This document shows positions 14,182 to 32,784 of a stretch of DNA of 64,000 bases, in pieces. Numbering within the stretch: position 1 is the stretch's first letter; each line of letters begins with the position of its first letter. Location: contig JAZQNS010000008.1 in the NCBI GenBank assembly GCA_045627425.1, positions 5,775 through 69,774 on the forward strand, in the 5' to 3' direction. The DNA is from Lachnospiraceae bacterium. Lineage in GTDB: Bacteria; Bacillota; Clostridia; Lachnospirales; Lachnospiraceae. The translations under genes were made by a program, and so were the position numbers. A model generated the notes under the pieces. It made no database searches, had not been told where the DNA came from, and was given only the letters and a program-made list of their open reading frames with translations.

Positions 14182-14231
14182 TCTTCTCTCCAGTAAGTGA
14201 CAAATTATAGGTAATTACTTGCCTTATTTAA

Positions 14232-14260: not shown

Positions 14261-14302
14261 TATTGTATAAAAAATAAAACAATTCATATATAGGAGGCAA
14301 GT

Positions 14303-14542
14303 ATGAAAACAGTATCTATCACCTTAAATTCCATTGATAAGGTTAAAAACTTTGTTAACACTATTGCCCAGTTTGATTTCGATTTCGACCTGGTATCCGG
14401 CCGTTATGTTATTGATGCCAAGTCAATTATGGGTATCTTCAGTTTAGACCTTTCCAAACCAATTGACTTAACAGTTCACACAGACAAGGATATTGACTCC
14501 GTTATGGAAGCCTTAAAGCCTTATCTTACAGAAAACCAGTAA
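14303..14542 (+). CDS. HPr-family (PTS phosphocarrier-like) protein lacking the His15 site
   Basis: The 79-aa ORF keeps the HPr Ser46-region motif (AKSIMGIFSL). The G-I-H-A-R-P region is replaced by SIDKVKN. Confidence 0.65.
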   Translation: MKTVSITLNSIDKVKNFVNTIAQFDFDFDLVSGRYVIDAKSIMGIFSLDLSKPIDLTVHTDKDIDSVMEALKPYLTENQ

Positions 14543-14555
14543 TATATGAAACTTA

Positions 14556-14579
14556 AACGCCGACAATATTGTCGGCGTT
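14556..14579. terminator. bidirectional terminator (HPr-like gene and thiI)
   Basis: The perfect 12-bp palindrome aacgccgacaat/attgtcggcgtt is followed by atttttaag on the plus strand. Confidence 0.8.
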
Positions 14580-14590
14580 ATTTTTAAGTT

Positions 14591-15775: not shown

Positions 15776-15777
15776 TT

Positions 15778-16932: not shown

Positions 16933-16933
16933 T

Positions 16934-17671
16934 CTAATCTTCTTCCATCTGCATCATAAGAAGTGATGCCATCGTAATCGCAGCAGTTTCTGTTCTAAGT
17001 ATTCTGCGTCCTAAGCTTATTAGCTCCATTTCTTCCTTAACCAGATCGATTTCCTTGTTATCGAAACCGCCTTCCGGTCCAACAAAAACTCCTACACTGG
17101 TGTTTTTGCCTATTCTGGATAAAACCTCTTTCGTATAACTAATACCCTTCTGATTCTCATAAGGCACAAGGTTTATTCCGTTATTCTCTGCATCCTTAAC
17201 AGCTTCCTTAAAGGACATTACAGGGTGTACAGTTGGTATGACAGATCTTTTAGACTGCTTTGCCGCAGCCTCAGCAATGGCCTGCCAGCGCATAACCTTG
17301 CTCTCCGCTTTTTTGTCATCTAATTTCACAACGGAATTCTTCATTCTGACAGGAACAATATCTGTAACTCCAAGCTCCGTGCACTTCTGAATAATGAGCT
17401 CAAGCTTGTCAGACTTAGGCAGTCCCTGGTAGAGAATTATTCTACCGGAAAGCTCTGTGGAATCCATCTCAGAAAGCACCTTCCCAAGCCCGGCCTCCTC
17501 ACTGTAGCCTTCCACCTGACATAAGTAATTCTTTCCATCAGGGAGTGAAACTCTAAACTTCTCACCGAGTTTCAATCTTACCACATTTTTCATATGATTC
17601 AAGTCTGAACCAGTAATTTCAACATAATCTCCCTTAAAGGAGCTGTCTTCTACAAAAAACTGAAACATCAA
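16934..17671 (-). CDS. rsmE: 16S rRNA (uracil1498-N3)-methyltransferase RsmE
   Basis: The 245-aa ORF has a PUA-like N-terminus and a SPOUT C-terminus (GPEGGF, LGRRILRTETA). Confidence 0.88.
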   Translation of the reverse strand: MMFQFFVEDSSFKGDYVEITGSDLNHMKNVVRLKLGEKFRVSLPDGKNYLCQVEGYSEEAGLGKVLSEMDSTELSGRIILYQGLPKSDKLELIIQKCTELGVTDIVPVRMKNSVVKLDDKKAESKVMRWQAIAEAAAKQSKRSVIPTVHPVMSFKEAVKDAENNGINLVPYENQKGISYTKEVLSRIGKNTSVGVFVGPEGGFDNKEIDLVKEEMELISLGRRILRTETAAITMASLLMMQMEED

Positions 17672-20600
17672 TCAAGGTCTCCTAATCCCACCTTCTGAAT
17701 ATTAAAGGTACATGATCCAATTTCGCTGGTTGGCAATTCCACGCCATCTATGCTGCCTCCGGCAATAACATAAATCGTGAACTCGTCGTATTTTGCATTG
17801 TTAAACTGATTAAGATCCAGATTAAAGGTATAAACAAGTCCTGAATTCAAATTCTCCTGTCTTCCCTTTTTGCCTACGGCATCCTTTAAGAGTATTCCAT
17901 ATACTCCTGAGCCAGGGATTATTTCTACAGCTCCCTTTTCATTCTTATTTGCAGCAATGTAGAACTCTGCCCAAAATACCTTTTTGCCTGTGTTATAGTT
18001 GTTATCCTGAATCTTATAATACAGGGTCTCCGTACCTGAGAATACATCAATAGGGTTCTCCTGACCATAGGATTCGTCATATGATACATAGAGTGTCTTT
18101 AGAGCAATTGACGCTGTCGCTTCCTCAGAAACAGTTATTCCCGGAGCCTTATTACCAACCGAGTAAGCCGCTATCATTGTGTTAATATAGAGCTTAAACT
18201 CAAACTCTGTATTGATAGCAGAATGGCCTACACCTGAATAAGTAATATTTCCCTTAGTGTAGATATAGTAATTGTTTCTTACATCCTTTACAGCCCTGTC
18301 ATATTCACCTGTAGCAAGGGTGTACCAGACAACTATGTCTGACATACCATCAAGATCCTCGTCCTCATTTAAATCAAGCTGATAGTACTGAGCGTGGGTC
18401 TCTGAAACTGACTGTAAAGAATCCGAATCAATATCGTATGGATATGATGTAATCTGACCTGAATTAACCTGGGCTACTGAAGTAACATTGGTAGTAGCGT
18501 TAGTATGGTAGTACTTATTATAGGTATTAGACTTAATCGACTGATTATTTAAGTCAATTGTGGTAAATCCCTGCTGCTGTTTAACAATTACAGACTTGCC
18601 GCTCTTAGGTTCATAAGCCAGGTCCTTACTATTACTATCTGCAAATGACTGGGCAGTAGCATAGTCAGCAGAATTCTGGTTAATTATACTACCCTTCTTT
18701 AACACATTAGTTCCGATACCCTTTGCTGAATACTCAAGGTTACTGTTATTTAAAGTAATTCCATATCTGTCCATTCCGGAACAGTCTCTAATTAAACAGT
18801 TAAAATAATAACCCCAGTGATTGCTCTGGTAATTACAAAATGAAGTATTATCGTGGGTAAAAAGAACAGAATTTCCTTTCTCAGCATATGCTGCAAAGGC
18901 ATAAACCGCCTTCTTCACAGTATCGTTACTGTCTTTTCCAAGCTGATACATGTCATCAAATCCTGAAATCAGCATATCGTAGCCTTCAAGGAATTTAAGT
19001 CCTGGTACCTCCGCCTTACTGTCACTCTGAACAATGCCAAGATAATCAGCTGCCGAAATCGAATTAATCTTCAGCTTGAAATCAGCAATCTCAGCAACAA
19101 CATAGGTTTGGTTGCTCTTATCTATTCTGTCGAAATATCCTGAAAAAGCGCCGTTATTTCTCAGTTCGCTTTCCATATCAAAGTTATTGTTTCTTGAGGA
19201 CATAACCTGAATAATGGAAACTTCCTGAAGATCATCACCGGCATCAATATGACCATAACCAACAGCAGAATCATAACGGTTCTCATTACCTGTATTCTGT
19301 GTTATTAGTATCTTCCAAGGAATAATACCAAATACCTCATCAGCAATTTTGTAGCTCAAGGTATAGTTTACACCTGTAGAAAGGACAAAATGATAGCCAT
19401 CGCCTGTCTTATCCTTTACCGGTGAAAGAAGCTTACCATTTCCTACTAATAGAACATCATTGTCCCCAACAACTTCTCCTGTAGACGAGAACTTACCATC
19501 AGAATTGATATCTAAGAGTAAATCGACATCATAAGTAATAGACTCATCACCAGCTCCGGGATTGGTAAGTATAAAATCAATACTAAGCTTGTGATTATCC
19601 ACCTCCATGTAGTTTTCCCCTGCTACATTCTGACTTAGAATTGTAATTTCAGGAACTGTTGTCTGCACATAGGTATATAATTCACCAATCTTAGGTCCCG
19701 CTTCCTTTTCGCTAACATTTTTTACCATGGACAGGGCAAAAACAGATTTCTCATTTAAGAGGGTGGAAACAAGTCTGTACATATTGGAACAGTTGTCAAC
19801 GGTATTAGTATTTACAAGACCACTGTCAGTCAGGCTGTCAGCAACAACCACTGGGAATCCTGCTCCAACATACTTTTCAATAGCAAGAAGCTTCTCATCA
19901 GTAATATCATTTCCCGAGTATCTATAGGTCTGATAGCCAGAGAGATATTTGTCGTTTGTTGAAGTATTTCGGCTGTATTTCTGTAAGGAATTGTAACGAC
20001 TTCTGGTCATACCATATCGTTTAGAAGTCCATCCAATACCCCATCTGTTACCTACCTTGTATTCAATGTAATAGTAGTCCCCGCTCTTATAGGTAAATGC
20101 AGTCCTGTACTGGCTAATTATCTGCTGATAGACACTCTCTGTCTGACCTTCTTCATAGAGATAGTAAATATCATCTGAAGCCTTGCAGGTATAGTACTTT
20201 CCATCTAAATAGATGTATTCGCCCTTATTATCCTTAACATACTTATTTGTGTCAGTGTTGGATCTCTGTGTGAGGCTTCCGGTTACAGTCTTTCTTCCTA
20301 ACCAGTCTGTCTGATAGTCAGTATCAAGTAAGCCTGCGTGATACAATGGATCTCCTGAAGTGTTTATTACAATAATATCTCCTACATTTGAGTAGATTAG
20401 TCCGTCCATGTTAGGATCATTATAGACAGTTTTCCCATTGCTATCCTTATTGAAGGCAGAGGTATTATCTCCAAAGTAAATCATGTCATAGTTACTAAGG
20501 TCCTCTATTCTTCCGTTTAACTCAGCTGTAGACACTGTTGTGACAGTTATGCTCTTTACTTCGTATCCAGCTGTGGAGAACCATTTTGCCACGGCTTCTT

Positions 20601-22362
20601 TTGTAAGACAGGTGTCGTTGGCCTTTAAGCATGGCTCAATATCCAGAACATTCACTGTTGCGTCCCAGCTTCTGTTCCTCATGTTTCCATAATTGATTAT
20701 GTACTCTACCGCTATTGCTCTGGTAATGTTTCTGTCAAAACATATGTCGTCTGTAGAAAACTCACTCATATATAAAGAGTTCTCGTGGTTTATGTACTCA
20801 GCAATTTCAGAAAAACCTGCATCTCTTGCAGATGACAGGAAGTTTGCCTCACTTGTTCCATTGGCAAAACTCTCTGTAGCAAAAAGTTTGATAATGTCGG
20901 ATGTAACAAAGACATTTTTAACAACATAGTTTCCATCAGAGTCCTTAGACGGCAGGTCTTTAAGCTTATCATTTATAGTGCCATTCTTAACAATAAGAGG
21001 CATAAGCTCACTGCCGTAGCATCTGTCTAATATCTTGTTTAAAAGAATTGTATTAAAGGATTTAGTATTTGCATTTATATATATTAAATCCGCATTTTCA
21101 ATGTCAGATTCTTTTAAATCCTTTATCAGAACAGTTTTAACTGACACATTAATCTCATTAATGTTATCTCCGGAAAGGCCCGCATTTACAACCTCTCTCA
21201 CAAATAGGTCCCTGTTATGGATACCGCCAGTGTAGTATACCTTCGAAACCATTATTCCCAGATCAGGGTATGAATTAGCCTGTTGCTTTAAAACATAACC
21301 ACCCTTTCCAGCTAATACCTCAATGTAATATGGCTCTCCATTTAAGACGAAATTGCTTCCACTTACGTATGGATTCTCCGGATCAAGAGCACCTGCTCTG
21401 TACTCTCCTAAACCATCAGGCTTAAAGCTTACAGTTTTTACACTGTATTCACCCTTTACATCGTAGATAAAGTTTACCAGGTAATAACGCTTGTTGGAAA
21501 AGTCTAAGCTGCTGTTATCTGCCTTAAGGGCATCATAACACTCCTTAAGACTTGATACGTACTTAAGGTGTTTATCAGCCTCATCTTCATCTCCTCGGTC
21601 CGCAGAATATACAGCAAAACTACCCTCGGAGTTGTTTGATTCATAGTATTCAGTAAAAGCAGTTTTAGACCTGAAAGTCTTATAAATTTCCGCCGAATAA
21701 GTGCTTCCGCTTCCACTATTCTTTTCAAATATCAGAGAATAATATACACCATTCTTCGATGTATCCCTCTCATAATATGCTACATTCTCATTGGTGTTGC
21801 CGCTGCCGTCGCTCTTTGGAATAAGTTCATAATGCTTCTGGTAATTGCCACCGCTTTCTGGAGTCATGACATATCCATAGAAGGATGTCTTTGCTACCAA
21901 TTCCTGCCTCTTAAGGGTAATTTCCTGATAGTCTGCAGAAGGGGTTTTCTGACTCTCTAAATAACATTCTGAATAGGTGCTGAAGGATAAAGCCTTATCA
22001 CTACCTATATAAGCACTATATTTGTTATTTAAAGCTGTCATATATGCATTTCTCTCTGATGCGCCAGTCTTTGCTGAAAGCTCCTCTTTCCAGTTACTAT
22101 AGGAGGAATCCACATACATAGGTTCCTCTCCATCAACAAGAAATCCAATGCTTGCATCTTCTATATTTGCAACAATCTCAAGAATGTTATATGGATTATC
22201 TGAAGAGTTCTCCGAAACAAGAGCAGACATGCCACTGAAAGGCTTCTGAGCATATGTGGCCGTGGAAGTCTTTTTCTCAAGCAAATAAATGCCCGTAAGC
22301 ATAAGGCTTACCGCCAGCAAAAAAGCAAGTATTCTCTTTCCGTAATCTCTGATTCTTTTCAT
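17668..22362 (-). CDS. very large (1564 aa) secreted or membrane-anchored protein of unknown function; terminal gene of the type IV pilus cluster
   Basis: It is the longest ORF in the window, with its ATG at 22362, 8 nt after the last pseudopilin gene. It has a Sec-type N-terminal signal/anchor (ILAFLLAVSLMLTGIYLL..ATYAQK). There is no prepilin G/F site and no LPXTG. The stop overlaps the rsmE ATG. Confidence 0.85.
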   Translation of the reverse strand: MKRIRDYGKRILAFLLAVSLMLTGIYLLEKKTSTATYAQKPFSGMSALVSENSSDNPYNILEIVANIEDASIGFLVDGEEPMYVDSSYSNWKEELSAKTGASERNAYMTALNNKYSAYIGSDKALSFSTYSECYLESQKTPSADYQEITLKRQELVAKTSFYGYVMTPESGGNYQKHYELIPKSDGSGNTNENVAYYERDTSKNGVYYSLIFEKNSGSGSTYSAEIYKTFRSKTAFTEYYESNNSEGSFAVYSADRGDEDEADKHLKYVSSLKECYDALKADNSSLDFSNKRYYLVNFIYDVKGEYSVKTVSFKPDGLGEYRAGALDPENPYVSGSNFVLNGEPYYIEVLAGKGGYVLKQQANSYPDLGIMVSKVYYTGGIHNRDLFVREVVNAGLSGDNINEINVSVKTVLIKDLKESDIENADLIYINANTKSFNTILLNKILDRCYGSELMPLIVKNGTINDKLKDLPSKDSDGNYVVKNVFVTSDIIKLFATESFANGTSEANFLSSARDAGFSEIAEYINHENSLYMSEFSTDDICFDRNITRAIAVEYIINYGNMRNRSWDATVNVLDIEPCLKANDTCLTKEAVAKWFSTAGYEVKSITVTTVSTAELNGRIEDLSNYDMIYFGDNTSAFNKDSNGKTVYNDPNMDGLIYSNVGDIIVINTSGDPLYHAGLLDTDYQTDWLGRKTVTGSLTQRSNTDTNKYVKDNKGEYIYLDGKYYTCKASDDIYYLYEEGQTESVYQQIISQYRTAFTYKSGDYYYIEYKVGNRWGIGWTSKRYGMTRSRYNSLQKYSRNTSTNDKYLSGYQTYRYSGNDITDEKLLAIEKYVGAGFPVVVADSLTDSGLVNTNTVDNCSNMYRLVSTLLNEKSVFALSMVKNVSEKEAGPKIGELYTYVQTTVPEITILSQNVAGENYMEVDNHKLSIDFILTNPGAGDESITYDVDLLLDINSDGKFSSTGEVVGDNDVLLVGNGKLLSPVKDKTGDGYHFVLSTGVNYTLSYKIADEVFGIIPWKILITQNTGNENRYDSAVGYGHIDAGDDLQEVSIIQVMSSRNNNFDMESELRNNGAFSGYFDRIDKSNQTYVVAEIADFKLKINSISAADYLGIVQSDSKAEVPGLKFLEGYDMLISGFDDMYQLGKDSNDTVKKAVYAFAAYAEKGNSVLFTHDNTSFCNYQSNHWGYYFNCLIRDCSGMDRYGITLNNSNLEYSAKGIGTNVLKKGSIINQNSADYATAQSFADSNSKDLAYEPKSGKSVIVKQQQGFTTIDLNNQSIKSNTYNKYYHTNATTNVTSVAQVNSGQITSYPYDIDSDSLQSVSETHAQYYQLDLNEDEDLDGMSDIVVWYTLATGEYDRAVKDVRNNYYIYTKGNITYSGVGHSAINTEFEFKLYINTMIAAYSVGNKAPGITVSEEATASIALKTLYVSYDESYGQENPIDVFSGTETLYYKIQDNNYNTGKKVFWAEFYIAANKNEKGAVEIIPGSGVYGILLKDAVGKKGRQENLNSGLVYTFNLDLNQFNNAKYDEFTIYVIAGGSIDGVELPTSEIGSCTFNIQKVGLGDLD

Positions 22363-22370
22363 TAATACTC

Positions 22371-22847
22371 CTAAAACTCCAGATCTTTATAATTTCTAAG
22401 AGTTACAACATCCGTAATTTCTGCCTCTCTTTTATCCCTCTTCATGGTAAGACCAATACTAACTCTACCTTTTGTCTCATCAACAGTGGCATGAAAGGAA
22501 GTGACATATTCTGAAAGCACCGATGTCTCACTATTTCCCGCCTTTATCTTGGTCAGATAAATAATACAGGCATCCGGATCATAGCTAATCTCATAAATAA
22601 CATCATTATTCTCCACCAAAAGACTGTTTGCTCCCTGTTTTTTAACGGATTTATTGGCATCTACTACGAGGTCATGAATCTGGTTTATTGCAAGCTGGGC
22701 TTCAAACTGAAGTTCCGTCTCGCTTGAAACATTTTTGTAAGAGCCTGTGGAAGTCATAAGAAAGGTCACCACAAGCACAGCAATTACCGCAAGAATTGCC
22801 ACAGCAATAACCAGCTCAATTAAAGAAAATCCCCTGTTATCCCTCAT
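22371..22847 (-). CDS. prepilin-type N-terminal cleavage/methylation domain protein (minor pilin)
   Basis: The N-terminus MRDNRG/FSLIELVIAVAILAVIAV is a class III signal with Glu at +5. Confidence 0.85.
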   Translation of the reverse strand: MRDNRGFSLIELVIAVAILAVIAVLVVTFLMTSTGSYKNVSSETELQFEAQLAINQIHDLVVDANKSVKKQGANSLLVENNDVIYEISYDPDACIIYLTKIKAGNSETSVLSEYVTSFHATVDETKGRVSIGLTMKRDKREAEITDVVTLRNYKDLEF

Positions 22848-22859
22848 TTCTCTCTCCTG

Positions 22860-23318
22860 CTAATTAGTGATAAGTTTTCCCGTTTCCGGGAAAAGCTTTA
22901 TTCTATATGTTTTATTTCCCTGAGTGACCGTAAACTCATCAACTGTATAGTTTATTAGCGACCCCGACTCTCTGTTAAAGGTAAAAACCAGCTTAGTGAT
23001 CAAATTACCCGAAGCATCCTTAAGAACCACTGAGTTTTTGCCAATTCTTGTTGAAGTGGTTTCAATGGTTCCATCAGCACTCTCATTTTTTAATTCAGAG
23101 TAAATACCTGAGCTGTCAGCACTAATAGTCAGACTTGTATTTACATAGCTAAGGGACATTGCCCTCGCACGGTTATACTCAGATTCAAAGTTCTCCGAGA
23201 ACTCTTTTGCATAAAAACCGGTTAGTGTTGTTACTCCAATTCCCGCTGAAACGGTCAGCACCGCAATAATTGCAAGTACAATAATAACCTCCACCATAGA
23301 AAAACCCTTATTATTCAT
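22860..23318 (-). CDS. prepilin-type N-terminal cleavage/methylation domain protein (minor pilin)
   Basis: The N-terminus MNNKG/FSMVEVIIVLAIIAVL is a class III signal with Glu at +5. Confidence 0.85.
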   Translation of the reverse strand: MNNKGFSMVEVIIVLAIIAVLTVSAGIGVTTLTGFYAKEFSENFESEYNRARAMSLSYVNTSLTISADSSGIYSELKNESADGTIETTSTRIGKNSVVLKDASGNLITKLVFTFNRESGSLINYTVDEFTVTQGNKTYRIKLFPETGKLITN

Positions 23319-23326
23319 AAGACCTC

Positions 23327-25357
23327 CTACTTTTTGTTGTAGTTGCTATAGCTGATAAGATTTCTGTACTCTGTATCATCAATTGGAAGCTCCTCGCTTG
23401 CGGCAAAGTTTAAACCATCTGTAAAGAGTTCCTTTAAATCATCATTATCTCTTAAGAGCCTCGTAATAGTATTTCCTGCAGGTGGTCTCAGACTTGTTCT
23501 TCCCTTTATGGTTAAGCTTCCCCTGCATATAATAATTCCTGTGTAATCACTGCTAATAGTGACATTTCCCTTGGCAATAATCATGGAAACGTCCCCTCCC
23601 TGATAGTCATAGTTTCCATCAGTGACAATAGCCTTAACACCATTGCTCTCATAAGTCAGGGTGGTATTAGCACGAATTCTTTCAGTCTTTATAATCTTAT
23701 TAAAGAGAATCTCACTGTTATCCCTGTCATCCTTATTCATGGATGCAGATAAACCGGCAAAATCACTTGCTATTTTTGCTGTATCTTCAGCAGCAACATT
23801 AAGCTCTCTGTAGCTTCCATCTGATATGTAGAAATCTCCAGGGGCATAGACATTTGTTGAGGTTCCAGCATCTGTTCCAAACTTAAAAGCTGAAAGGTAA
23901 TACTGAAAATAACTGTCTAATCTTGCCTTGTTGCTTTCACTTGCATTGTAAAAGGCCTTATAGTATTCTTCCGCTCTCTCACCCGAAAGAGATACGAAGA
24001 AGTATATAAGGTTGCCATTGTCTGATACTCTTATAGAAATGTCTTCTCTGTTAATTCCCAGTGATGCCAGGTTTCCAGAAAGCTTTGCAGTGACAACGGA
24101 TAAGTCTACCAAATCCTGATAGCCTGAAACATTGCCTAAAATACTAGCATATTCCGTGGCAGTTAATGGATTCTTAAACTCATACCTAATGCACTCTGAA
24201 GGAACAAGATAGGCTACCTGATTACCCTTAATGGCGATGGAATCCTTAAGCTGTACACTTGTCTGTCCAACGTATCCATATCCGCCGAGGTAAAGCTCAG
24301 ACAGATCCGTAAAATCAAGACTGGTGTTCTTGCCGTTTATAATAATTGCAGAGCTATTCTCTGCTCTACCGTTAACCTGACTATAGTTAGAATACCCCAC
24401 ATATCTGCCAGAAATAGCCACCTCAGAGGATGTACCGTTCACTGTCAAATCATCCTTCACATAGGTGGTACCCTGAAGGGTCAATAAACCTCCATTTGCA
24501 ACAATATTCTTGCTGTAAAAGGTAGAGCCGGATTTAACTCTAAGGCTTGTGTTAGATTTCACATTGACACTTGGAGTCCTGTTTAATCTGCTCTCGCCTG
24601 TAGAAATAAAGAGGTCTGAATCTACAGTTAAACTACTTCCATTCTCTAAGAGTAATGAAAGATCGTCAGTTACACTTCCAAGAAGGCTCTTGTCTCCCGC
24701 ATAAATTTTGCCTGTAAGACTAACCTCAGCGCCTGCGTCTACAATTATTCCACTGTTGGCAATAACTGCCGCTGTATAATAGCCAGAAGCTCGAACAGTG
24801 TCCTTCTCGTTTAAAGGTGGTGTTGATATCTTTAAATCCGTCTCAATGATTGAAGTAATGCCGTCTTTAGTAAAAGAAACTCTGATTCCCTTTAATATAA
24901 CGTAGTCCCCATCTCTGATAAGATCTGCCTCACTAAGAGGGGTTGTCTCTGTGATTTCCGTCATGCTTAAAAGACTGCTGTCAACATAGTCTGTGAGAGT
25001 GGAAAGCTTGTATCTCTGATCATTCTGGTCAGATTTAAGGCTGTCCATCAGATGCTTGGCAAAGGCATCAGTATATTTTGCCTGTCTAGTGGCAGACTCT
25101 GTTCCAATATACCAGACCATTGTATCTGCATAGGCATCTGCATAGGCCTTGGAAATCTGATTGGCAAGGCCCGCAGTGATTTCATCTAGGACATTCTCAG
25201 CAGAGTAAAAGTTTCCCTTTAACTCTGCATTGTTGTTCTTCATTTTAAAGTTAATTAAGGTCATTGAAAGCGCAAGGGTACCAAGGATGGCAACTATTGT
25301 TACCACCACCAGTGTAAGCACTATGGTTGAGCCTCTATTATCCTTAAAAAAAATCAA
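23327..25357 (-). CDS. large PilX/GspK-like minor pilin-type protein (676 aa) without Glu+5
   Basis: The N-terminus FFKDNRGSTIVLTLVVVTIVAILGTLAL is a pilin-like hydrophobic helix with no Glu5. The TTG start at 25357 overlaps the upstream TGA, with a GGAGG RBS 9 nt upstream. The body has repetitive beta-strand-like patterns. Confidence 0.7.
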   Translation of the reverse strand: MIFFKDNRGSTIVLTLVVVTIVAILGTLALSMTLINFKMKNNNAELKGNFYSAENVLDEITAGLANQISKAYADAYADTMVWYIGTESATRQAKYTDAFAKHLMDSLKSDQNDQRYKLSTLTDYVDSSLLSMTEITETTPLSEADLIRDGDYVILKGIRVSFTKDGITSIIETDLKISTPPLNEKDTVRASGYYTAAVIANSGIIVDAGAEVSLTGKIYAGDKSLLGSVTDDLSLLLENGSSLTVDSDLFISTGESRLNRTPSVNVKSNTSLRVKSGSTFYSKNIVANGGLLTLQGTTYVKDDLTVNGTSSEVAISGRYVGYSNYSQVNGRAENSSAIIINGKNTSLDFTDLSELYLGGYGYVGQTSVQLKDSIAIKGNQVAYLVPSECIRYEFKNPLTATEYASILGNVSGYQDLVDLSVVTAKLSGNLASLGINREDISIRVSDNGNLIYFFVSLSGERAEEYYKAFYNASESNKARLDSYFQYYLSAFKFGTDAGTSTNVYAPGDFYISDGSYRELNVAAEDTAKIASDFAGLSASMNKDDRDNSEILFNKIIKTERIRANTTLTYESNGVKAIVTDGNYDYQGGDVSMIIAKGNVTISSDYTGIIICRGSLTIKGRTSLRPPAGNTITRLLRDNDDLKELFTDGLNFAASEELPIDDTEYRNLISYSNYNKK

Positions 25358-26811
25358 TCCTTAAGACCTCCGGTAATTGCATATATGTAGTCGTCAGAGG
25401 AAATGGAAGATAGATCCAGCTCCGCTAATCCGTTTTTAGGCAAAATGTAAACAGTCACATTATAGAGTCTTGGCTTTTGTGAGCCCTCAAGGGTGTCTGT
25501 CAGTCCACGTATTCCCATAGCTGTTTTAACCGCTTGTTGGGACGCATTATTATTGTACTGGTACTCTGCCTGAAGTGGCGCCTCATTTCCTGATATAAGG
25601 TTAGTGCCAAGGTTAGTTAATATTGAAAGTCTGGTTATCTTTTTGCTAGCCCCGTTAATCCTTGTCGAGCCCTCTCTAACAACAACCTCTGCAGAATATC
25701 TGCCTTCAAGGTTTCTTATACTTGCATCATCATAGGCATTTACAGGATATCTCTGCTTAATAATGTGTAAGTCAGCATAAGCCAGGGAAGTATTATTCAC
25801 ATAGATATAATCCTTACAATCAATATAGTTCGATGCATACCATGGATAATACATAAGGTATATGTTAGAAAGACTGTCGCCGTTATAAATCTCAGTTGTA
25901 TACCTGCTTTTAAGTGAATCGTTATCTCCAGGAAGAAGATAGGTTTCCCCATCATACTTAAGCTTGTAGGAATATGACACCGTAACCAGTGTGTTACCCG
26001 AGTAGGATACTATTCCTGGATAAGCCTGACTCGCAGGCACAATGTCTATAATTATACTTCTCTCCATATCATCTCGCAGGATTTCTTCCCTCATTACAGA
26101 GTCGAAGGTAGCATTATTATCTCCAGCATCGATTTTTCCAGAAAGAATAAGGGAAATCTTGGAGGAAAGTTCCTCGTTAGCGTTAACCATCTCCTGAACT
26201 ATGTCTAAAGAATAGTCATCAAAAGCTGAAACTCCATCTGTGGAATCCTTTATTGCATTAATATCTGATATTGCACCATTATATAAATCTATTGTCTTTC
26301 CATGAGCATCTGTAACTATTTTGCCATCATTTCTGCTAACAGAAAGTAATGCGGTATAGTCGTTTCCAGTGGCTTTAATATTCTTTAGGGCAAAATAATA
26401 CTTGTCATCATCATTTCCAAGGAAGGTGTATCCAGTAACCTTTAAGTTTCCACCTGCATCTGTCTCTGTAATCTCCATGGCAGAATGAACAAGACTTTTG
26501 TCTTCCTTAAGCTCACTTAAGTCTCCCTCAGTTATATTTAAAGCATCTCTTATAGAGCTTCCATATCCGAAATCACACTCAATGGTAAGGTTTGAAAGGC
26601 TGGTATCAACCAGGGTCTCCATAAGGTTTTCGGCTATATCCGTGGCCTGTAAAAGCTGTCTTGCCTTGGTGTTTGTTCTGGTGGAAATAACAAAGGCCAT
26701 AAGAAGGGGAGCTACCACCACAGCAAGTATAGCTACTGCGATTAGTAACTCTATAAGGGTAAAACCACTGTTCTTAGATTCTTTAAATTTAAGAAACTCC
26801 TTATCAGTCAT
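25354..26811 (-). CDS. large prepilin-type minor pilin (485 aa)
   Basis: The ATG at 26811 gives MTDKEFLKFKESKNSG/FTLIELLIAVAILAVVVAPL. It overlaps the pilO stop by 8 nt. The longer ORF to 26919 lies inside pilO and is unlikely. Confidence 0.8.
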   Translation of the reverse strand: MTDKEFLKFKESKNSGFTLIELLIAVAILAVVVAPLLMAFVISTRTNTKARQLLQATDIAENLMETLVDTSLSNLTIECDFGYGSSIRDALNITEGDLSELKEDKSLVHSAMEITETDAGGNLKVTGYTFLGNDDDKYYFALKNIKATGNDYTALLSVSRNDGKIVTDAHGKTIDLYNGAISDINAIKDSTDGVSAFDDYSLDIVQEMVNANEELSSKISLILSGKIDAGDNNATFDSVMREEILRDDMERSIIIDIVPASQAYPGIVSYSGNTLVTVSYSYKLKYDGETYLLPGDNDSLKSRYTTEIYNGDSLSNIYLMYYPWYASNYIDCKDYIYVNNTSLAYADLHIIKQRYPVNAYDDASIRNLEGRYSAEVVVREGSTRINGASKKITRLSILTNLGTNLISGNEAPLQAEYQYNNNASQQAVKTAMGIRGLTDTLEGSQKPRLYNVTVYILPKNGLAELDLSSISSDDYIYAITGGLKD

Positions 26812-27514
26812 TATTTCCTTCCGTTTCGCCAAATATATCCTCCTGACCTGATGGCACATAGCCTGGATATGGAGCGATATAATTCTTATCTGTCTGGTTC
26901 TCAAGATAATAGGAATCATAGTTTAAGGTTCCCATTAAAAGGCCTGTTTCCTCATCTAGAGAAACATAGAGACCAGTGAGACCTCTCTTGTCTTTTGTCA
27001 CCAAAAGGCTGTTAATCACATTTCTAAGCTCCTTGTAGGAAAGCTCGAAATCTATGCTTGTGCTCACATAATAGAGTGGGTATGGAGCATAGATTACCTC
27101 TTCGTCATTTTCCGAAGCAGTTTTCCTGGCATCTGAATATTCGGGAGCACCATAGTCTTTAGAGAGTTCTGTGAGGACTGGATCATCACAAAGGATGGAA
27201 GAAATATAACCATCATCTATATGCTCTAACTCCACGGCCTTCATAATCTCATTTTCCGGATATACACACACTGGATATCTAGCAAGAATAATACCTATAT
27301 TCTGCTGCAATTCGAGGGTCTCATTCTGATATAACTCTGCACTGTCAGCATATGCCTGTAAGGTATTTGCTTCAGCGGTAAGCCTCATATTCTCAATTAC
27401 AAGCTCATCGCATTTTGCAGTCATTGGTTTGAAGACAAAGAAATAGCACAGGGCCAGTATTAAAGCTCCAGAGAGGAGTAATAGTGTATTCTTATCTTTA
27501 TTTGATAGTTTCAT
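26804..27514 (-). CDS. pilO: type IV pilus assembly protein PilO-like
   Basis: The 236-aa ORF has an N-terminal TM segment (LLLLSGALILALCYFFVF) followed by a coiled coil. Its position after pilMN fits. Confidence 0.65.
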   Translation of the reverse strand: MKLSNKDKNTLLLLSGALILALCYFFVFKPMTAKCDELVIENMRLTAEANTLQAYADSAELYQNETLELQQNIGIILARYPVCVYPENEIMKAVELEHIDDGYISSILCDDPVLTELSKDYGAPEYSDARKTASENDEEVIYAPYPLYYVSTSIDFELSYKELRNVINSLLVTKDKRGLTGLYVSLDEETGLLMGTLNYDSYYLENQTDKNYIAPYPGYVPSGQEDIFGETEGNND

Positions 27515-27523
27515 ATTTACCTC

Positions 27524-29146
27524 CTACTCTGCTGCTTCCTCACTGGCTTCATTCTTAAAGCCAATGGTTATTGTAAAAGTAACTTTATGATTACCGTTTT
27601 CATCAACTGTATCATCCACTGCGGAAATACTGGTTATTGGAAACTCGCTTCTAAGACTTGTAATAAAAGCTGTAGCCTCAGTTTTGTTTTTCATGGAGAA
27701 TTCTATCTCCATATCCTCACTTGTGGAACTAAAAGTGGATATATAGGCCTTTTCAGGCATAATTTCTGAAAGTTTATCGAAAACCTCAATCAGACTGTTG
27801 TTGTTTGTTTCCGTAGCTTCCTCAACCATGCTCAAATAATCGTAACACTCCTTAGCCTCAGCGTATTCAATATAGGCATCCTTGGCATACTGAAGACTCA
27901 AAACCCTTTTTTGAAGTTCTCTGTTCTCCGCATGAATATTAAAATAACTAATAATAGAATACAGAGCAAGTGCCAATCCAAAGACTCCTAAGAAAGCCGC
28001 AGCAATATGGACTTTTTTGAATCCAATTCGTTTCTCGTGCTCTTCTTCTTCCTTCTCGTTTCTAAGTAGTGGAATTGGATAAATCGTAGCACCTACAGGG
28101 GCAAAGAACTCAACCGGCATTCCATCATCAAGAAGATTACCTTTATCAAAGTTTACAGTGTTAATGTCATATGAAACTGAAATCTTAATCTGTAAAATCT
28201 GCCTAAACAGAGTAGCCAGATAGGGGAAATCAGCACCATATCCAATTAAGTGGAAAGCTTCAACAGGCTTATCAGGGTTCTTGCTAACATAGAAATCAAG
28301 GACCCTTGATAAGGACCCAATAAGCATTTCGAGAGAGTCTGACACTTTCTCTCTAAGCCTGCCAACTAGTTCGGGGTCAAAGCTAAAATCCCCTGTTTCT
28401 ACCTTGTCTTCCCCGTTATTATATAATGAGTCCGGAGCACTTTTTCTGGCCAGGCTTAATACTTCATAGGCAGTGTTTGCATCACCAAATACCTTGGAAT
28501 CAATTAGTTCTCCCAGGGCATCTGACAGTCCGTAAGGTATACTTCTCTGAAGCAAAACGCCCCCATCCTCAATGATAGTGACCATTGTAGCTGTATCATC
28601 GATCTTAATGGTTGCAGATATAGTCTCGTCAGAATACTCTTTGGTCATTATGTTTCTGATAGAGTTTCCAACATAATCAATGGCAACAATCTGAAAGCCC
28701 ATCTTTTCTGAGAATACCTTGTAGGACTCTGTAATGTCCTTAGGACAGGCGAGTAATGAAATTTTATCCTTACCATCCTTTGTCTGACCATTTTTTCCGA
28801 ATGTAAGGTCATACTGCTTTAAATCAACAGGAAAATACTCCTTGCTGTTATTCTTAATCATTTCGGCAAGAAGCTTGTCCTTCATTTTAGGTATTTCAAT
28901 CTCACGAGTGGCAATCCTTGCTGAATTTATGGTAAAAATAACTCGGTTAGTCCTAATTCCCCTGTCTCTAAGCTGTCCCTTAAGGGAAACTATAAATCTT
29001 TCATCTGGGATAATCTTTCCATCTGAAAATACTCCCTCTGGAGTCTCTAAGGAAAAGTGGTTATAAACTCTTATATTTTTGCCAGAGTCAGCCTCTACTA
29101 CCTTAGTCAGTAATTCTCCAATCTCAATACTTAAGACTTTTGCCAT
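27524..29146 (-). CDS. pilM: type IV pilus assembly PilM-PilN fusion protein
   Basis: The N-terminal ~370 aa are actin-like PilM (VLSIEIGELLTKVV...). A central TM segment follows (AAAFLGVFGLALALYSIISYF), then a PilN-like coiled region. The architecture matches clostridial PilMN. Confidence 0.75.
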   Translation of the reverse strand: MAKVLSIEIGELLTKVVEADSGKNIRVYNHFSLETPEGVFSDGKIIPDERFIVSLKGQLRDRGIRTNRVIFTINSARIATREIEIPKMKDKLLAEMIKNNSKEYFPVDLKQYDLTFGKNGQTKDGKDKISLLACPKDITESYKVFSEKMGFQIVAIDYVGNSIRNIMTKEYSDETISATIKIDDTATMVTIIEDGGVLLQRSIPYGLSDALGELIDSKVFGDANTAYEVLSLARKSAPDSLYNNGEDKVETGDFSFDPELVGRLREKVSDSLEMLIGSLSRVLDFYVSKNPDKPVEAFHLIGYGADFPYLATLFRQILQIKISVSYDINTVNFDKGNLLDDGMPVEFFAPVGATIYPIPLLRNEKEEEEHEKRIGFKKVHIAAAFLGVFGLALALYSIISYFNIHAENRELQKRVLSLQYAKDAYIEYAEAKECYDYLSMVEEATETNNNSLIEVFDKLSEIMPEKAYISTFSSTSEDMEIEFSMKNKTEATAFITSLRSEFPITSISAVDDTVDENGNHKVTFTITIGFKNEASEEAAE

Positions 29147-29171
29147 AAGTCAATCTCCTTAAATGTGTTTT

Positions 29172-29219
29172 TACCAAAGAGGATAAGGCAAAACCTGTTT
29201 TACCCTGTCCTCTCTGGTA
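29172..29219 (-). other. long intercistronic RNA hairpin between pilD and pilMN
   Basis: This is a 23-bp inverted repeat. In the minus (sense) transcript it forms 19 Watson-Crick pairs, 3 G:U pairs and 1 mismatch with a 2-nt loop. No U-tract follows. Confidence 0.55.
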
Positions 29220-29231
29220 AATTACCATAAT

Positions 29232-29981
29232 TTAAAGCAATGCCAGATACTCTGTTATAAGCCATTCTCCGAAAAATAGGCTTGTCATAACCCCCGCTGA
29301 TAGATAAGGTCCCATGGCTAGAACATGATCCTCATTGCTAACTTTCATTCGTATAAGATGTATGACTGCGCCATAAATGCAGCCCAGGAAAAAGGAAAGG
29401 ATTACTAACTCCCATCCAAGGTAGAGACCGCATACCGCCATCAGCTTAACATCGCCGCCGCCAATTGCGCGGCCCTTGGACAAAAGCTGTAACAAAAACA
29501 GAACAAGACTTACCGCCAGAAATCCAATCAGACAATTCTTAAGGTCATAGGGCTTAAGAATTAGTTTAACGATTCCTAGCAGTAAGATCATTCCATTTAT
29601 CCCTATTGGAATCTCGTATGTCCTGAAATCTATTATGCTGAGCACTAGTAAACTCGAAAACAGAAAACAGTCTAAGCATGATTCAAGCTTAAAACCACGC
29701 AGGGCAAAAATAGCCACATATACGATTCCATTTACTGCCTCAATAATAGGGTACTGAGGACTGATCTTTCTCTTACACTTTCTACATTTTCCCCCCAAGA
29801 GGATATAACTAAAAAGGGGGATTAAATCATACCAGGATAGCTGATACCCGCAATGGGTACAATGGGATGGTACAGTAACTATGGATTCCTTTTCTGGTAT
29901 TCTAAGAATACAGACATTGAGAAAACTGCCTATTACTATGCCAAATAGAAAAATTGTAATGTATACAGGTATCAGCTCCAT
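29232..29981 (-). CDS. pilD: prepilin peptidase (A24 family) PilD
   Basis: It is polytopic, with an N-terminal Cys box (CTHCGYQL...CRKCKRK) and a GGGDVKL aspartyl motif. Confidence 0.9.
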   Translation of the reverse strand: MELIPVYITIFLFGIVIGSFLNVCILRIPEKESIVTVPSHCTHCGYQLSWYDLIPLFSYILLGGKCRKCKRKISPQYPIIEAVNGIVYVAIFALRGFKLESCLDCFLFSSLLVLSIIDFRTYEIPIGINGMILLLGIVKLILKPYDLKNCLIGFLAVSLVLFLLQLLSKGRAIGGGDVKLMAVCGLYLGWELVILSFFLGCIYGAVIHLIRMKVSNEDHVLAMGPYLSAGVMTSLFFGEWLITEYLALL

Positions 29982-29997
29982 AAAAAACTCCTATTAA

Positions 29998-30435
29998 TTA
30001 GTTGCCTGCAAGGTTATAGGTCTTGCCATCATAGGTTGCTGTTCCAGAAATTGTTACAGTACCATCTGTGTTAAACTTCAAGGAAGCACTTGACCACTTG
30101 CTGGACTGGATTGAGAATGTAAAGTTTTCTCCATCCTTAGCAAGGTTAGCGTTTACAAGTGCTGCATGGATCTTGCTGTCCTTATCTACAGTAACTGTAC
30201 CCTTTGTAATAGTTATGGACTCCACAGCCTTTGGAAGTTCTCCAGAATCAACCACATATGTCTCAATTGCAGTCTTAATCTGCTGGCACTGCTCGATGTC
30301 AGAGGAAATTCTTGATCTCTCAACATACTTTGTAAACTGTGGTGCTAAAATACCAACTAATACAGCCATAATAGCAATAACTACAATTAACTCTACTAAA
30401 GAGAAACCTGCATTATTCTTCATGCTCTTCTTCAT
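29998..30435 (-). CDS. pilA: major type IV pilin PilA-like
   Basis: The ATG at 30435 gives MKKSMKNNAG/FSLVELIVVIAIMAVLVGILAPQF. The RBS AAAGGAG lies upstream. The length is 145 aa and the position between pilC and pilD fits. Confidence 0.85.
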   Translation of the reverse strand: MKKSMKNNAGFSLVELIVVIAIMAVLVGILAPQFTKYVERSRISSDIEQCQQIKTAIETYVVDSGELPKAVESITITKGTVTVDKDSKIHAALVNANLAKDGENFTFSIQSSKWSSASLKFNTDGTVTISGTATYDGKTYNLAGN

Positions 30436-30500
30436 TTGAAATACTCCTTTGCTTATATACATATTTATCTAAATTCCTCCCTATAGGAACTTAAACCTGA

Positions 30501-31715
30501 TTAAAGTGCATCCATCTGCCCGTAGAGAGCCAGCATTGCACTCATAATTGCGGCAATAAGTATGCCTACAATAACTGCCAGTACAAGAATAATCATTGGC
30601 TCAAGAGCTGCCATGGCAGTCTCTGTGGATATCTCAACTTCCTCCTCGTAATACTCAGCCAGTCTGTTTAACATACCCTCAAGATCGCCTGTCTCCTCTC
30701 CAATGTTAACCATATGGGTAACCATTGGCGGGAATATTTCGGAATCTTTAAGGGGCTCTGACAGGCCTACACCCTTTGAAACCTCATCCTTGGCTTTTAG
30801 TACAGCCTTCTCAAAGAGATAGTTAGACATTGTAGTTGCTGTTATGCCAAGAGCTTCTATCATCGGAAGACCTGAAATAATTAAGGTTGATAAGGTTCTT
30901 GCAAAGGAAGCTGACTGGGATTTAACAATAAGCTTACCAAAGAAAGGTGCCTTTATGCCAAGTTCTCCAAAAAAGCTTTTGCCTGATTCTGTTGTCTTAT
31001 AGACACTAACAAAAGCAATAAAGGCAAATAAAACTATAAATAGTGCCGGCCAGTAATTGATTACGAAATTCGAAAGGGCAACTACCGCCTTAGTCATTGC
31101 TGGCAGTTCTCCTCCCAGCTCGTCAAACATTGACTGATATGACGGGATTACCTTAACTAACATAACAACTACAACCACAACCGAAACAATGGCCACTATG
31201 ATTGGATAGATAGCTGCCTTCCTCACAATTCCCTTGATATGAGCGGATTTCTCAAAATGAATAGACATTCTCTCAAAGGCCACATCAAGCTTACCGGAAG
31301 CTTCTCCTGCCGCCACCATTGATACCATAACGTGAGGAAAGACATCCGGATACTTTCTAAGTGAATCCGCTAAGGTTTCACCCTTCTGAATCTCAGCATG
31401 AACTCCCTTTATAGCCTTGGCCATAGCCCTGTTCTCGGTCTGTTCTGCCAGCATATTTAAGGCATCAAGGATAGTTACTCCGGCATTAACCATAGCTATA
31501 AACTGTCTGCAAAAAATAGACAGGTCTCTCGCCTTAACGGCTTTGCCAATGTTTATGCTAATGTCCTTTGTCAGGATGGTTGCCTCGTCAATAGATACAA
31601 CCATGTTGCCCTCGTTTTTTAATTTGCTAGAGGCATCCTTATAGGACTGTGCCGTCAGAGTACCCTTTTTTTCTTTGCCATCAGGGTCAATGACCAGATA
31701 TTTATAATCCGGCAT
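30501..31715 (-). CDS. pilC: type IV pilus platform protein PilC (GspF family)
   Basis: The 404-aa ORF has two T2SSF repeats and three TM segments. Confidence 0.9.
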   Translation of the reverse strand: MPDYKYLVIDPDGKEKKGTLTAQSYKDASSKLKNEGNMVVSIDEATILTKDISINIGKAVKARDLSIFCRQFIAMVNAGVTILDALNMLAEQTENRAMAKAIKGVHAEIQKGETLADSLRKYPDVFPHVMVSMVAAGEASGKLDVAFERMSIHFEKSAHIKGIVRKAAIYPIIVAIVSVVVVVVMLVKVIPSYQSMFDELGGELPAMTKAVVALSNFVINYWPALFIVLFAFIAFVSVYKTTESGKSFFGELGIKAPFFGKLIVKSQSASFARTLSTLIISGLPMIEALGITATTMSNYLFEKAVLKAKDEVSKGVGLSEPLKDSEIFPPMVTHMVNIGEETGDLEGMLNRLAEYYEEEVEISTETAMAALEPMIILVLAVIVGILIAAIMSAMLALYGQMDAL

Positions 31716-31723
31716 AATTCCTC

Positions 31724-32779: not shown

Positions 32780-32784
32780 TAGGC

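Follow-up and report, generated by a model that had tools for sequence, protein, structure and literature searches.

In a 64,000-nucleotide stretch of Lachnospiraceae DNA (the window), the gene that follows the four minor-pilin genes of a type IVa pilus cluster was found to encode a large Sec-exported protein of the DUF5057 family, here called BIG. BIG is very probably a dedicated protein of the pilus system of some kind. The best candidate for its specific mechanism, to which we give a probability of about 0.5, is a non-pilin tip adhesin docked on the minor pilins; by gene position and architecture only, such a protein would be an analogue of PilY1 and not a homologue. What the analysis shows directly for BIG is its place in the operon, its strict synteny, the type of its signal, its modular build and the pattern of its conservation. 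In Gram-positive species, type IV pili are regarded as depending on modular pilins and as having no tip protein of the PilY1 type (PMC10191384); a giant partner conserved at the pilus loci of several hundred gut Clostridia would alter that picture. The features of the locus are collected in Table 1.

Table 1. BIG, its predicted segments and the neighbouring genes, in window coordinates
Feature	Residues of BIG	Coordinates	Strand	Remarks
BIG, CDS of DUF5057-family protein	1-1564	17668..22362	(-)	ATG start; 1564 aa
Ribosome-binding site AGGAG of BIG		22368..22372	(-)	5 nt before ATG; overlaps stop of preceding minor pilin gene
rsmE		16934..17671	(-)	start overlaps BIG stop; Methyltrans_RNA E=2.3e-50
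Four minor-pilin genes		22371..26919	(-)	25354-26919; 23327-25357; 22860-23318; 22371-22847; always directly before BIG
Remaining type IVa pilus cluster		26804..34506	(-)	pilB, pilT, pilC, major pilin, prepilin peptidase, PilM-PilN fusion, PilO-like gene
Predicted Sec signal peptide	1-38	22249..22362	(-)	putative cleavage site
D1, first half	40-92	22087..22245	(-)	alpha/beta; ILEIV strand; E62, G73 invariant
Insertion 1	93-384	21211..22086	(-)	rich in Ser, Tyr, Gly
D1, second half	385-545	20728..21210	(-)	ADLIYINAN
D2, first half	546-700	20263..20727	(-)	NVLEIEP, YDMIYxG
Insertion 2	701-809	19936..20262	(-)	17% Tyr; 0-188 aa long in homologues
D2, second half	810-905	19648..19935	(-)	SGNDIT, GYPVV; DUF5057 match begins here
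Beta-sandwich (Ig-like) domain	906-1042	19237..19647	(-)	from model secondary structure and Ig-like Foldseek matches
EF-hand-like loop	951-963	19474..19512	(-)	D-x-N-x-D-G-[KR]-[FY]-S-x(2,3)-E
Module D3	1043-1408	18139..19236	(-)	most conserved part of BIG
C-terminal beta-sandwich	1409-1564	17671..18138	(-)	terminal family motif L-[FV]-[DE]-L-[DE], here GLGDLD

Gene context

BIG is the longest open reading frame of the window, as the first-pass annotation had said; the runner-up encodes 1431 aa. The junction with the preceding minor-pilin gene reads TAG-GAGTATTA-ATG, in agreement with the 8 nt given earlier for this gap, and that preceding gene is itself a prepilin gene (N_methyl, E=8.8e-9). 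At the other end, the TGA stop of BIG overlaps the start of rsmE in the sequence TTGATG, again as originally described. No terminator-like sites were found between the pilin genes, BIG and rsmE. The adjacency of rsmE is peculiar to the present genome, and no rsmE was found in related loci. One minor pilin, the 676-aa product of 23327-25357, is without Glu5 and is GspK/PilX-like.

Relatives of BIG were sought by several searches. A word-indexed protein search (full BIG, then full alignment) gave 13 relatives only, a search with a profile of a conserved 111-aa part of BIG gave short fragments only, and an exhaustive search gave 2053 cluster representatives. Relatives are encoded in 553 GTDB species genomes, and the hosts include Agathobacter, Roseburia, Blautia, Faecalibacterium and Oscillospiraceae.

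The first five homologue contexts all had the order pilC, pilin, pilD, pilMN, pilO, four minor pilins and then BIG. The same order of pilus genes preceded BIG in one distant homologue, and the same placement was seen for fragmented copies of BIG in Clostridium sp. DMHC 10 and one other genome. Whether homologues always follow a minor-pilin block was a question raised with the initial annotation. Among the best 80 loci, which hold the closest relatives of BIG out of the 553 genomes, they did so in every locus with upstream DNA. The block is one of four minor pilins, and in all but two cases the gap between the last of these and BIG lies between -44 and +87 nt. In the reverse direction, starting from the 676-aa minor pilin, BIG was present in 50 of 50 loci with at least 4.5 kb of downstream DNA, a sample of about five lineages.

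Further pil genes, mostly pilB, were found downstream of BIG in 18 of 66 loci, where BIG therefore lies inside the pilus cluster. Because the other downstream genes vary between loci, the conserved linkage of BIG is to the pilins. The description of BIG as a terminal gene thus applies here, where it is the last pil gene, but does not apply always; its assignment to the pilus transcription unit holds as membership of the gene cluster, the position after the minor pilins being the same in related loci.

Export signal and anchoring

The N terminus of BIG consists of a basic n-region, a hydrophobic stretch at aa 10-29 and a TYA/QK site; the family motif [ST]FxGI comes next. A Sec-type hydrophobic N terminus with an AxA-like site was present in 70 of 74 homologues and the class III prepilin motif in none of the 74, and BIG gave no match to N_methyl. 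These counts agree with the first description of BIG as a non-pilin secreted protein. Several other classes were ruled out for BIG: type IV pilin or pseudopilin, as the class III signal peptide is absent; sortase substrate, as LPXTG is absent; and lipoprotein, as the conserved lipobox cysteine is absent from the sequences, which were judged by eye.

The stretch at aa 10-29 is the sole hydrophobic segment of BIG, with no membrane segment after the signal peptide, and the C terminus is an acidic LxDLD-type motif without a hydrophobic tail. LPXTG was absent, and wall-binding domains (SLH, LysM, CWB) were not found with Pfam, as expected from the earlier statement that BIG has no LPXTG and no obvious wall-binding repeats.

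With no peptidoglycan-binding or wall-anchoring domain in Pfam or NCBIfam searches, and no membrane segment beyond the signal peptide, BIG is unlikely to be a stationary assembly or envelope factor that helps the pilus to start or to cross the thick peptidoglycan, standing in for the secretin-associated parts absent from Gram-positive bacteria. Such a factor would fit the strict co-inheritance of BIG with the machine genes and its place among the cluster genes in roughly one locus in four, as well as its size and its possession of several conserved globular modules; that no wall-passage component is known for monoderm pili also counts in its favour. The fast within-lineage divergence and the lectin insertions described below point instead to an exposed, environment-facing protein.

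Domain architecture and conservation

Every motif quoted in the first-pass annotation was located at its residues: YNILEIV at 58-64, ADLIYINAN at 424-432, VNVLDIEP at 570-577, YDMIYFGDN at 625-633, VSIIQVM at 1048-1054, YDMLISGFDD at 1128-1137, NSVLFTHD at 1164-1171 and GNITYSGVGHS at 1371-1381. These motifs fall on invariant or near-invariant columns of the family alignments. In profile-profile comparison (hhalign), D2 matched D3 with a probability of 95.6% (E=1.2e-8), while D1 matched D2 at 48% and D3 at 56%; an unrelated control scored 0.04%. The conserved alignment columns, together with the profile-profile kinship of the modules, therefore indicate that the motifs are more than chance, and the three copies of a paired motif reported earlier can be described as three related alpha/beta modules.

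Ser (12%), Tyr (11.3%) and Gly (8.2%) are moderately enriched in insertion 1, which is 97-874 aa long in homologues. It is missing at the same position in three relatives (P0007, P0011 and P0012), where the segments corresponding to aa 54-86 and 391-439 of BIG are only about 45 residues apart; this mapping supports the proposal that the first module is split by a Tyr/Ser/Gly-rich insertion. Ricin B is present in P0007 and P0011, and this ricin-type lectin sits at the site of insertion 2. Among the N-terminal halves of 38 relatives, the adhesion-type modules found were three of F5/8 type C, two Listeria-Bacteroides repeats, one Laminin_G_3 and one ricin B, recognisable binding modules being present in a minority of relatives only.

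Mean identity across the family reaches 56% in aa 1295-1408 of D3. Residues G1134, D1137, H1170, D1171, N1300, G1302, P1308, H1323, Q1325, W1346, Y1365, Y1366, G1371, Y1375, G1377, G1379 and E1388 of this module are invariant and H1380 is nearly so. The EF-hand-like loop is nearly invariant among 83 sequences, with one extra residue in the copy of BIG, and is a putative calcium site. BIG is thus made up of a conserved C-terminal half and an N-terminal half with hypervariable insertions. Its sequence changes more quickly within one lineage than that of the neighbouring minor pilin, with a median identity of 91.4% (minimum 64.3%) for BIG and of 95.7% (minimum 91.1%) for the pilin.

A protein whose C-terminal half is conserved while its N-terminal half varies is more easily seen as a docked subunit than as a free enzyme. 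This bears on the reading of BIG as cargo, in which the Sec-exported protein is pushed through the wall by the pilus or a pseudopilus, as in type II secretion, and released, either into the medium or onto the surface of the cell, to act as adhesin or enzyme. In favour of this, BIG carries a Sec signal but lacks an anchor, type II secretion systems recognise secreted effectors through their minor-pilin complexes (PMC10191384), and a matrix protein of Clostridium perfringens has been reported to need type IV pili for its secretion (bioRxiv 10.1101/2024.11.04.621531). Secretion substrates, however, are not normally fixed beside minor pilins across hundreds of species, and the pilT retraction ATPase, together with a complete complement of type IVa genes, is what one expects of a true pilus, so that we consider a cargo improbable. 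A point against the tip adhesin is that deletion of cpe2277, the last gene of the main C. perfringens pilus locus and a possible homologue of BIG, left pilus-dependent secretion unaffected (bioRxiv 10.1101/2024.11.04.621531).

Family membership and fold

DUF5057 (PF16480) matched aa 818-1171 of BIG at E=6.6e-42, with 144.7 bits against a gathering threshold of 27.9 and over positions 1-378 of the 378 in the profile. It was the sole Pfam or NCBIfam match of BIG at E≤0.1, and it was found in 79 of 79 homologous D3 segments; relatives of BIG carry the NCBI label 'DUF5057 domain-containing protein'. The DUF5057 model covers less than a quarter of BIG (the end of D2, the beta-sandwich and the start of D3), its entry carries no function, and a literature search found no paper mentioning it.

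Searching PDB sequences with full BIG gave no match at E≤1. A model of aa 800-1564, built from a shallow alignment, was of medium quality (pLDDT 69, pTM 0.76) and shows alpha/beta and beta-sandwich elements and no propeller. For aa 40-910, likewise with a shallow alignment, the pLDDT was 41 and the fold of the N-terminal half was not obtained. When the medium-confidence model was compared with PDB and BFVD by Foldseek, generic alpha/beta and Ig-like matches only were returned, the Ig-like beta-sandwiches matching Gram-positive pilins and adhesins. TM-scores were 0.1-0.16 and the rmsd was near 19 Å, and there is therefore no real superposition.

The proposal that BIG has a ThuA-like or class I glutamine-amidotransferase-like fold was not established. 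Pfam ThuA (PF06283) matched 2 of 79 D3 segments, weakly (best E 0.0015), and none of the family consensus sequences searched against Pfam; a profile search of PDB sequences with the alpha/beta modules found nothing, and no ThuA-like structure was among the top 50 Foldseek matches. The order of conserved motifs in D3 resembles that of ThuA: a strand, 'DxxxxG', 'GxSxLFxHD', 'GQITxYPY', 'THxQY', 'GNxTYxGxGH' and a final helix. Unlike a ThuA-like fold, however, the domain in BIG is broken up by large insertions. No ThuA-like open reading frame, sought as a seed for profile comparison, was found in 50 kb of Sinorhizobium pSymB. The top match of the consensus against PDB by phmmer, an LH3 glycosyltransferase domain (E=0.84), was discarded as chance.

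The invariant His, Asp, Gln and Glu residues of D3 could equally well belong to an enzyme, as its catalytic centre or a metal site, a point against a tip adhesin. We nevertheless regard it as very unlikely that BIG is an extracellular enzyme, acting for example on carbohydrate or cell wall, that rides in the pilus operon. Its active site would be formed by residues of D3 (H1170, D1171, H1323, Q1325 and E1388 are invariant, H1380 nearly so), and Foldseek gave weak matches to the glycoside hydrolases GH123, GH5 and GlgE (E 1e-6 to 1e-4) and to SGNH esterase, with ThuA and SLT_4 weakly matched in a few members. Sequence profiles from Pfam, NCBIfam and PDB detect no enzyme family, the structural matches do not superpose, and a hitch-hiker would not hold identical neighbours in every examined locus. 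A glycoside hydrolase identity was ruled out by the same failure to superpose.

Proposed role of BIG

For the tip adhesin we propose the following course, in which we infer that BIG docks on the minor pilins, sits at the tip, adheres and binds calcium. The protein would leave the cytoplasm through Sec and lose its signal peptide. Outside the membrane, its conserved C-terminal half (D3, the C-terminal beta-sandwich and the LFDLD-type motif) would dock on the complex of the four minor pilins encoded immediately before it, which would include the GspK/PilX-like subunit without Glu5. The pilus would polymerise under this priming complex and carry BIG through the wall at its tip, where the variable N-terminal half, lectin-bearing in some relatives, could bind surfaces or glycans. 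Calcium may stabilise or regulate BIG through the EF-hand-like loop.

A stronger version, which we offer tentatively and consider doubtful, makes the DUF5057 family the missing non-pilin subunit of Gram-positive type IVa pili. BIG would then be an obligatory minor-pilin cap, needed for piliation and carrying adhesive specificity, with a calcium switch independent of that of PilY1 and a novel triple alpha/beta architecture. The setting of this version is gut Lachnospiraceae and Oscillospiraceae.

A pilus partner of this kind would give a concrete way into the attachment of abundant commensals to mucus, dietary fibre or host cells, and with its strain-level variability and lectin insertions it would be a candidate for what determines niche specificity. 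It would further assign a role to DUF5057, a domain of unknown function, and would exemplify convergent evolution with PilY1.

Comparison with known systems

PilY1/PilC of Pseudomonas, Neisseria and Myxococcus and BIG are alike in being large Sec-exported non-pilin proteins whose genes are encoded with four core minor pilins. Both are modular, with a conserved C-terminal and a variable N-terminal part, and both have an EF-hand-like loop motif, although the loop of BIG is in a different domain type. PilY1/PilC has been proposed to cap the minor-pilin tip complex, and BIG may do likewise. The C-terminal beta-propeller of PilY1/PilC is replaced in the BIG model by alpha/beta modules and beta-sandwiches, and Pfam and NCBIfam searches gave no match in BIG to the PilY1/PilC C-terminal family or to a von Willebrand A domain. 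Sequence kinship to PilY1 or to any solved structure was not detectable, which sustains the earlier view that the two are unrelated. The host of BIG is Gram-positive and without an outer membrane or secretin, unlike those of PilY1/PilC. The non-pilin tip effector PilC/PilY1 has been described for diderms, the model for monoderms being one of modular pilins (review PMC10191384).

The first-pass statement that no equivalent is established for clostridial type IV pili needs a caveat. Tapirins, like BIG, are Gram-positive non-pilin secreted proteins of adhesin type with genes beside pilus genes. They are structurally unique cellulose binders described from one genus, whereas the BIG family is far larger and more widespread. 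No PDB chain matched BIG at E≤1 and no tapirin was among the Foldseek matches of the aa 800-1564 model; the PDB includes a tapirin C-terminal domain.

The type IVa pilus of the Gram-positive Streptococcus sanguinis has gained adhesive modules (von Willebrand A, lectin) within its minor-pilin set, in PilB and PilC (PMC8179133; PMC10191384). Those modules are grafted onto a pilin with a class III signal peptide, whereas BIG carries a Sec signal and lacks a pilin domain. The last minor pilin of the loci related to ours varies in length from 174 to 1092 aa, and both adhesin strategies may therefore coexist.

Genomic setting of the large gene

The large gene, which encodes a DUF5057-family protein, is the longest ORF in the window, as the first-pass annotation stated, and is the closing member of a complete type IVa pilus cluster encoded on one strand (see table). 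Its ATG is preceded at 5 nt by AGGAG. Its TGA stop overlaps the start of rsmE, again as described earlier. A simple scan found no terminator-like sites between the last pilin gene, the large gene and rsmE. The first strong terminator-like hairpin on the strand of the pilus cluster lies only past the mtaB-like gene, so that transcription from the pilus operon may continue through the intervening housekeeping genes.

Features of the pilus cluster (nucleotide positions in the window) and layout of the large protein (aa)
Feature	Position	Strand	Remarks
dnaJ	35256-36422
ORF, 168 aa	34629-35135	-	directly upstream of pilB, between dnaJ and pilus cluster
pilB	32785-34506	-	pilus cluster
pilT, pilC, major pilin, prepilin peptidase		-	pilus cluster members
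PilM-PilN fusion, 540 aa	27524-29146	-	pilus cluster
PilO-like gene	26804-27514	-	pilus cluster
Minor pilin 1 ORF, 521 aa	25354-26919	-	start probably internal
Minor pilin 2, 676 aa	23327-25357	-	without Glu5
Minor pilin 3	22860-23318	-
Minor pilin 4 (last), 158 aa	22371-22847	-	stop codon TAG
Large gene, 1564 aa	17668-22362	-	ATG start
C-terminus of large protein	17671-17688	-	family motif L-[FV]-[DE]-L-[DE]
rsmE, cysteine desulfurase-like gene, thiI, mtaB-like gene	12874-17671	-	follow large gene
Terminator-like hairpin	12861-12836	-
Signal peptide	aa 1-38
Module D1	aa 40-92 + 385-545		split by insertion 1
Insertion 1	aa 93-384		97-874 aa in relatives
Module D2	aa 546-700 + 810-905		split by insertion 2
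Insertion 2	aa 701-809		0-188 aa in relatives
Beta-sandwich	aa 906-1042
Module D3	aa 1043-1408		with variable loop
C-terminal beta-sandwich	aa 1409-1564

The prepilin motif GFTLIELL was found at aa 49-72 of the first minor pilin ORF. The true start is therefore probably a Met inside the ORF, close to aa 37, the mechanically called ORF over-extending into the PilO-like gene. The second minor pilin and its homologues in the genome loci (L001-L087) share the N-terminal motif N-[NK]-[KR]-G-S-x-[IL]-V, in which Glu5 is absent, a hallmark of GspK/PilX-type tip subunits; the only Pfam match of the protein was PilX_N, below threshold (E 0.043). Nearly all related loci have the PilM-PilN fusion as well, with lengths of 523-640 aa. 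The 168-aa ORF combines a Glu/Arg-rich coiled-coil-like stretch with a C-terminal J-domain-like motif (KIYHPDN).

Linkage to the minor pilins across relatives

All five contexts of the first homologues had the order pilC, pilin, pilD, pilMN, pilO, four minor pilins and large gene, followed by unrelated genes that differ from locus to locus. Identical order was seen around a distant homologue and around the fragmented copies of two genomes, one of them Clostridium sp. DMHC 10. In assemblies L089 (Clostridium sp. DMHC 10) and L090 the large gene and all the rest of the pilus cluster are fragmented into numerous short ORFs, which indicates either error-rich assemblies or decaying loci.

The first-pass annotation had asked whether homologues always follow a minor-pilin block. 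ORFs of 87 loci were labelled by homology to the pilus proteins of the window, and in every locus with upstream DNA four minor-pilin homologues, in the same order, directly preceded the large gene. The gap to the last minor pilin was -44 to +87 nt, with two exceptions (167 and 2229 nt). The reverse test used 80 loci from a metagenome scan that contain the 676-aa minor pilin; the large gene was present in all 50 with at least 4.5 kb of downstream DNA, a narrow sample, with only about five lineages among these loci. Direct linkage to the minor-pilin block is strict and independent of the genes further downstream; together with the translational-coupling-like spacing it argues that the large protein is a dedicated pilus-system protein of some kind, to which we assign a probability of roughly 85%.

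The description of the large gene as terminal holds for the window but not throughout the family. Of the 66 loci with sufficient downstream DNA, 18 have further same-strand pilus genes after it, so that it lies within the cluster in roughly one case in four; pilB was the follower in 9 of these 18, 36-428 nt away. Among the labelled loci, rsmE follows the large gene only in this genome. The large gene is split into two ORFs in one locus (L057), and a Ruminococcus sp. locus (L087, from about 19170 onward) carries a second, shorter paralogue of 841 aa, 3 kb downstream of the main gene.

Export signal and proposed docking

Of 74 full-length homologues, 70 start with a basic segment and continue with a hydrophobic 17-mer, and none has a prepilin motif, in agreement with the Sec-type rather than prepilin signal read initially. 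This signal type excludes the large protein as a pilin. Inspection of homologue sequences by eye showed an AxA-like site (TYA|QK in this protein) after the hydrophobic stretch, followed by a conserved [ST]FxGI motif, which suggests cleavage by signal peptidase I. The absence of LPXTG was borne out, and aa 10-29 form the only hydrophobic segment. With no anchor, retention of the large protein must come from protein contacts. Nearly all homologues end exactly with the C-terminal motif listed in the table, possibly a docking strand.

In the simplest model, drawn by analogy with known tip proteins, the conserved C-terminal half would dock on a priming complex of the four upstream minor pilins, including the 676-aa subunit without Glu5, and the variable N-terminal half would be presented at the pilus tip. 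The earlier observation is confirmed and its interpretation upheld in part; any function of the large protein we infer.

Family, domain architecture and fold

The sole Pfam match of the large protein was DUF5057 (aa 818-1171, E=6.6e-42), a model that reaches from the last part of D2 through the beta-sandwich into the first part of D3. NCBIfam gave no match and PDB chains none at E<=1. NCBI names the relatives 'DUF5057 domain-containing protein', a literature search found no mention of the term 'DUF5057', and the only catalogue entry for the family is as a domain of unknown function. Exhaustive searching with a profile of the C-terminal half returned 2053 cluster representatives at E<=1e-3 (1606 at E<=1e-30), nearly all of 1400-2300 aa. 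Scanning one genome per GTDB species gave 553 genomes with relatives. The best 80 of these were mostly Lachnospiraceae, the closest being Agathobacter (35-39% identity), and included Oscillospiraceae, Acutalibacteraceae, Faecalibacterium, Intestinibacillus, Ruminiclostridium, Blautia and Roseburia. Among abundant gut bacteria the family is widespread, and the hypothesis lends itself to direct testing.

The layout in the table was derived from alignments, region statistics and a medium-confidence model of aa 800-1564 (pLDDT 69.4, pTM 0.76); a model of the N-terminal half (aa 40-910) was unusable (pLDDT 41). All motifs quoted in the first-pass annotation were found at their residues. In profile-profile comparison D2 matched D3 with a probability of 95.6% (E=1.2e-8), and D1 was more weakly related to D2 and D3 (48% and 56%; control pair 0.04%), so that the three repeated modules proposed earlier are real. 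Some homologues have both halves of D1 only about 45 residues apart, as expected if D1 is split by an insertion.

The suggested ThuA-like fold found no confirmation. The Pfam ThuA model touched 2 of 79 D3 segments (best E 0.0015) and did not match family consensus sequences, and the D3 profile found nothing among PDB sequences. Foldseek searches with the C-terminal model returned glycoside hydrolases (beta-sandwich plus barrel type), G-domains and an SGNH esterase, the long matches having TM-scores of 0.1-0.16, as well as Ig-like domains of Gram-positive pilins and adhesins (CppA, PrgB, MrkA). We read the model as generic three-layer alpha/beta modules and Ig-like sandwiches with no assignable superfamily. 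The conserved motif order of D3 does resemble the ThuA pattern, and we treat it only as a lead.

Conservation was highest at aa 1295-1408 (56% mean identity against 82 relatives). Invariant residues include G1134, D1137, H1170, D1171, N1300, G1302, P1308, H1323, Q1325, W1346, G1377, G1379 and E1388. An enzyme could make use of those in D3, a reading that we consider very improbable; tip display fits the conservation pattern and synteny better. The loop D951-x-N-x-D-G-[KR]-[FY]-S-x(2,3)-E963 in the first beta-sandwich is nearly invariant; about half of the relatives have canonical 12-residue EF-hand spacing, and the protein here has one extra residue.

Variability and comparison with known systems

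Pfam searches of the 38 longest N-terminal halves found F5/8 type C domains in three, Listeria-Bacteroides repeats in two, and Laminin_G_3 and ricin B in one each; ricin-type lectins occur in homologues P0007 and P0011, and most insertions have no known domain. At 95% identity the large protein formed 16 clusters and the neighbouring minor pilin 7 in one species-level lineage (metagenome loci L092-L171), which indicates that the large protein diversifies faster at strain level. Over 39 samples of a single lineage with the complete gene, identity was 91.4% (median; minimum 64.3%) for the large protein and 95.7% (minimum 91.1%) for the adjacent minor pilin. Binding modules and fast divergence are, at the level of sequence, signs of an exposed, binding role. 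The large protein might instead be cargo of a pilus used for secretion, for which there is literature context (bioRxiv 10.1101/2024.11.04.621531), or a stationary factor for assembly or wall passage. We regard both as unlikely, to a similar degree; each accounts less well than display at the tip for the conservation pattern and the synteny.

In diderms, PilY1/PilC is a non-pilin protein that docks on the priming complex and is displayed at the pilus tip. The large gene follows the same genetic logic but its product is unrelated: it has no propeller domain and no sequence match, which excludes membership of the PilY1 family and makes our claim one of analogy. A recent review (PMC10191384) describes a non-pilin tip effector only for diderms, the monoderm model being modular pilins. 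On this analogy we rate the large protein as a probable non-pilin pilus-associated protein of monoderms, with a fold unlike that of PilY1/PilC. Besides PilY1/PilC, the closest known systems are the tapirins of Caldicellulosiruptor, encoded next to the pilus locus (bioRxiv 10.1101/359786), and the modular pilins of S. sanguinis (PMC8179133). The minor pilin immediately ahead of the large gene, 158 aa here, has 174 to 1092 aa in the related loci (L003-L087, e.g. L007:6598-9876, L063 and L031), which points to modular pilins that carry grafted domains, like PilB/PilC of S. sanguinis.
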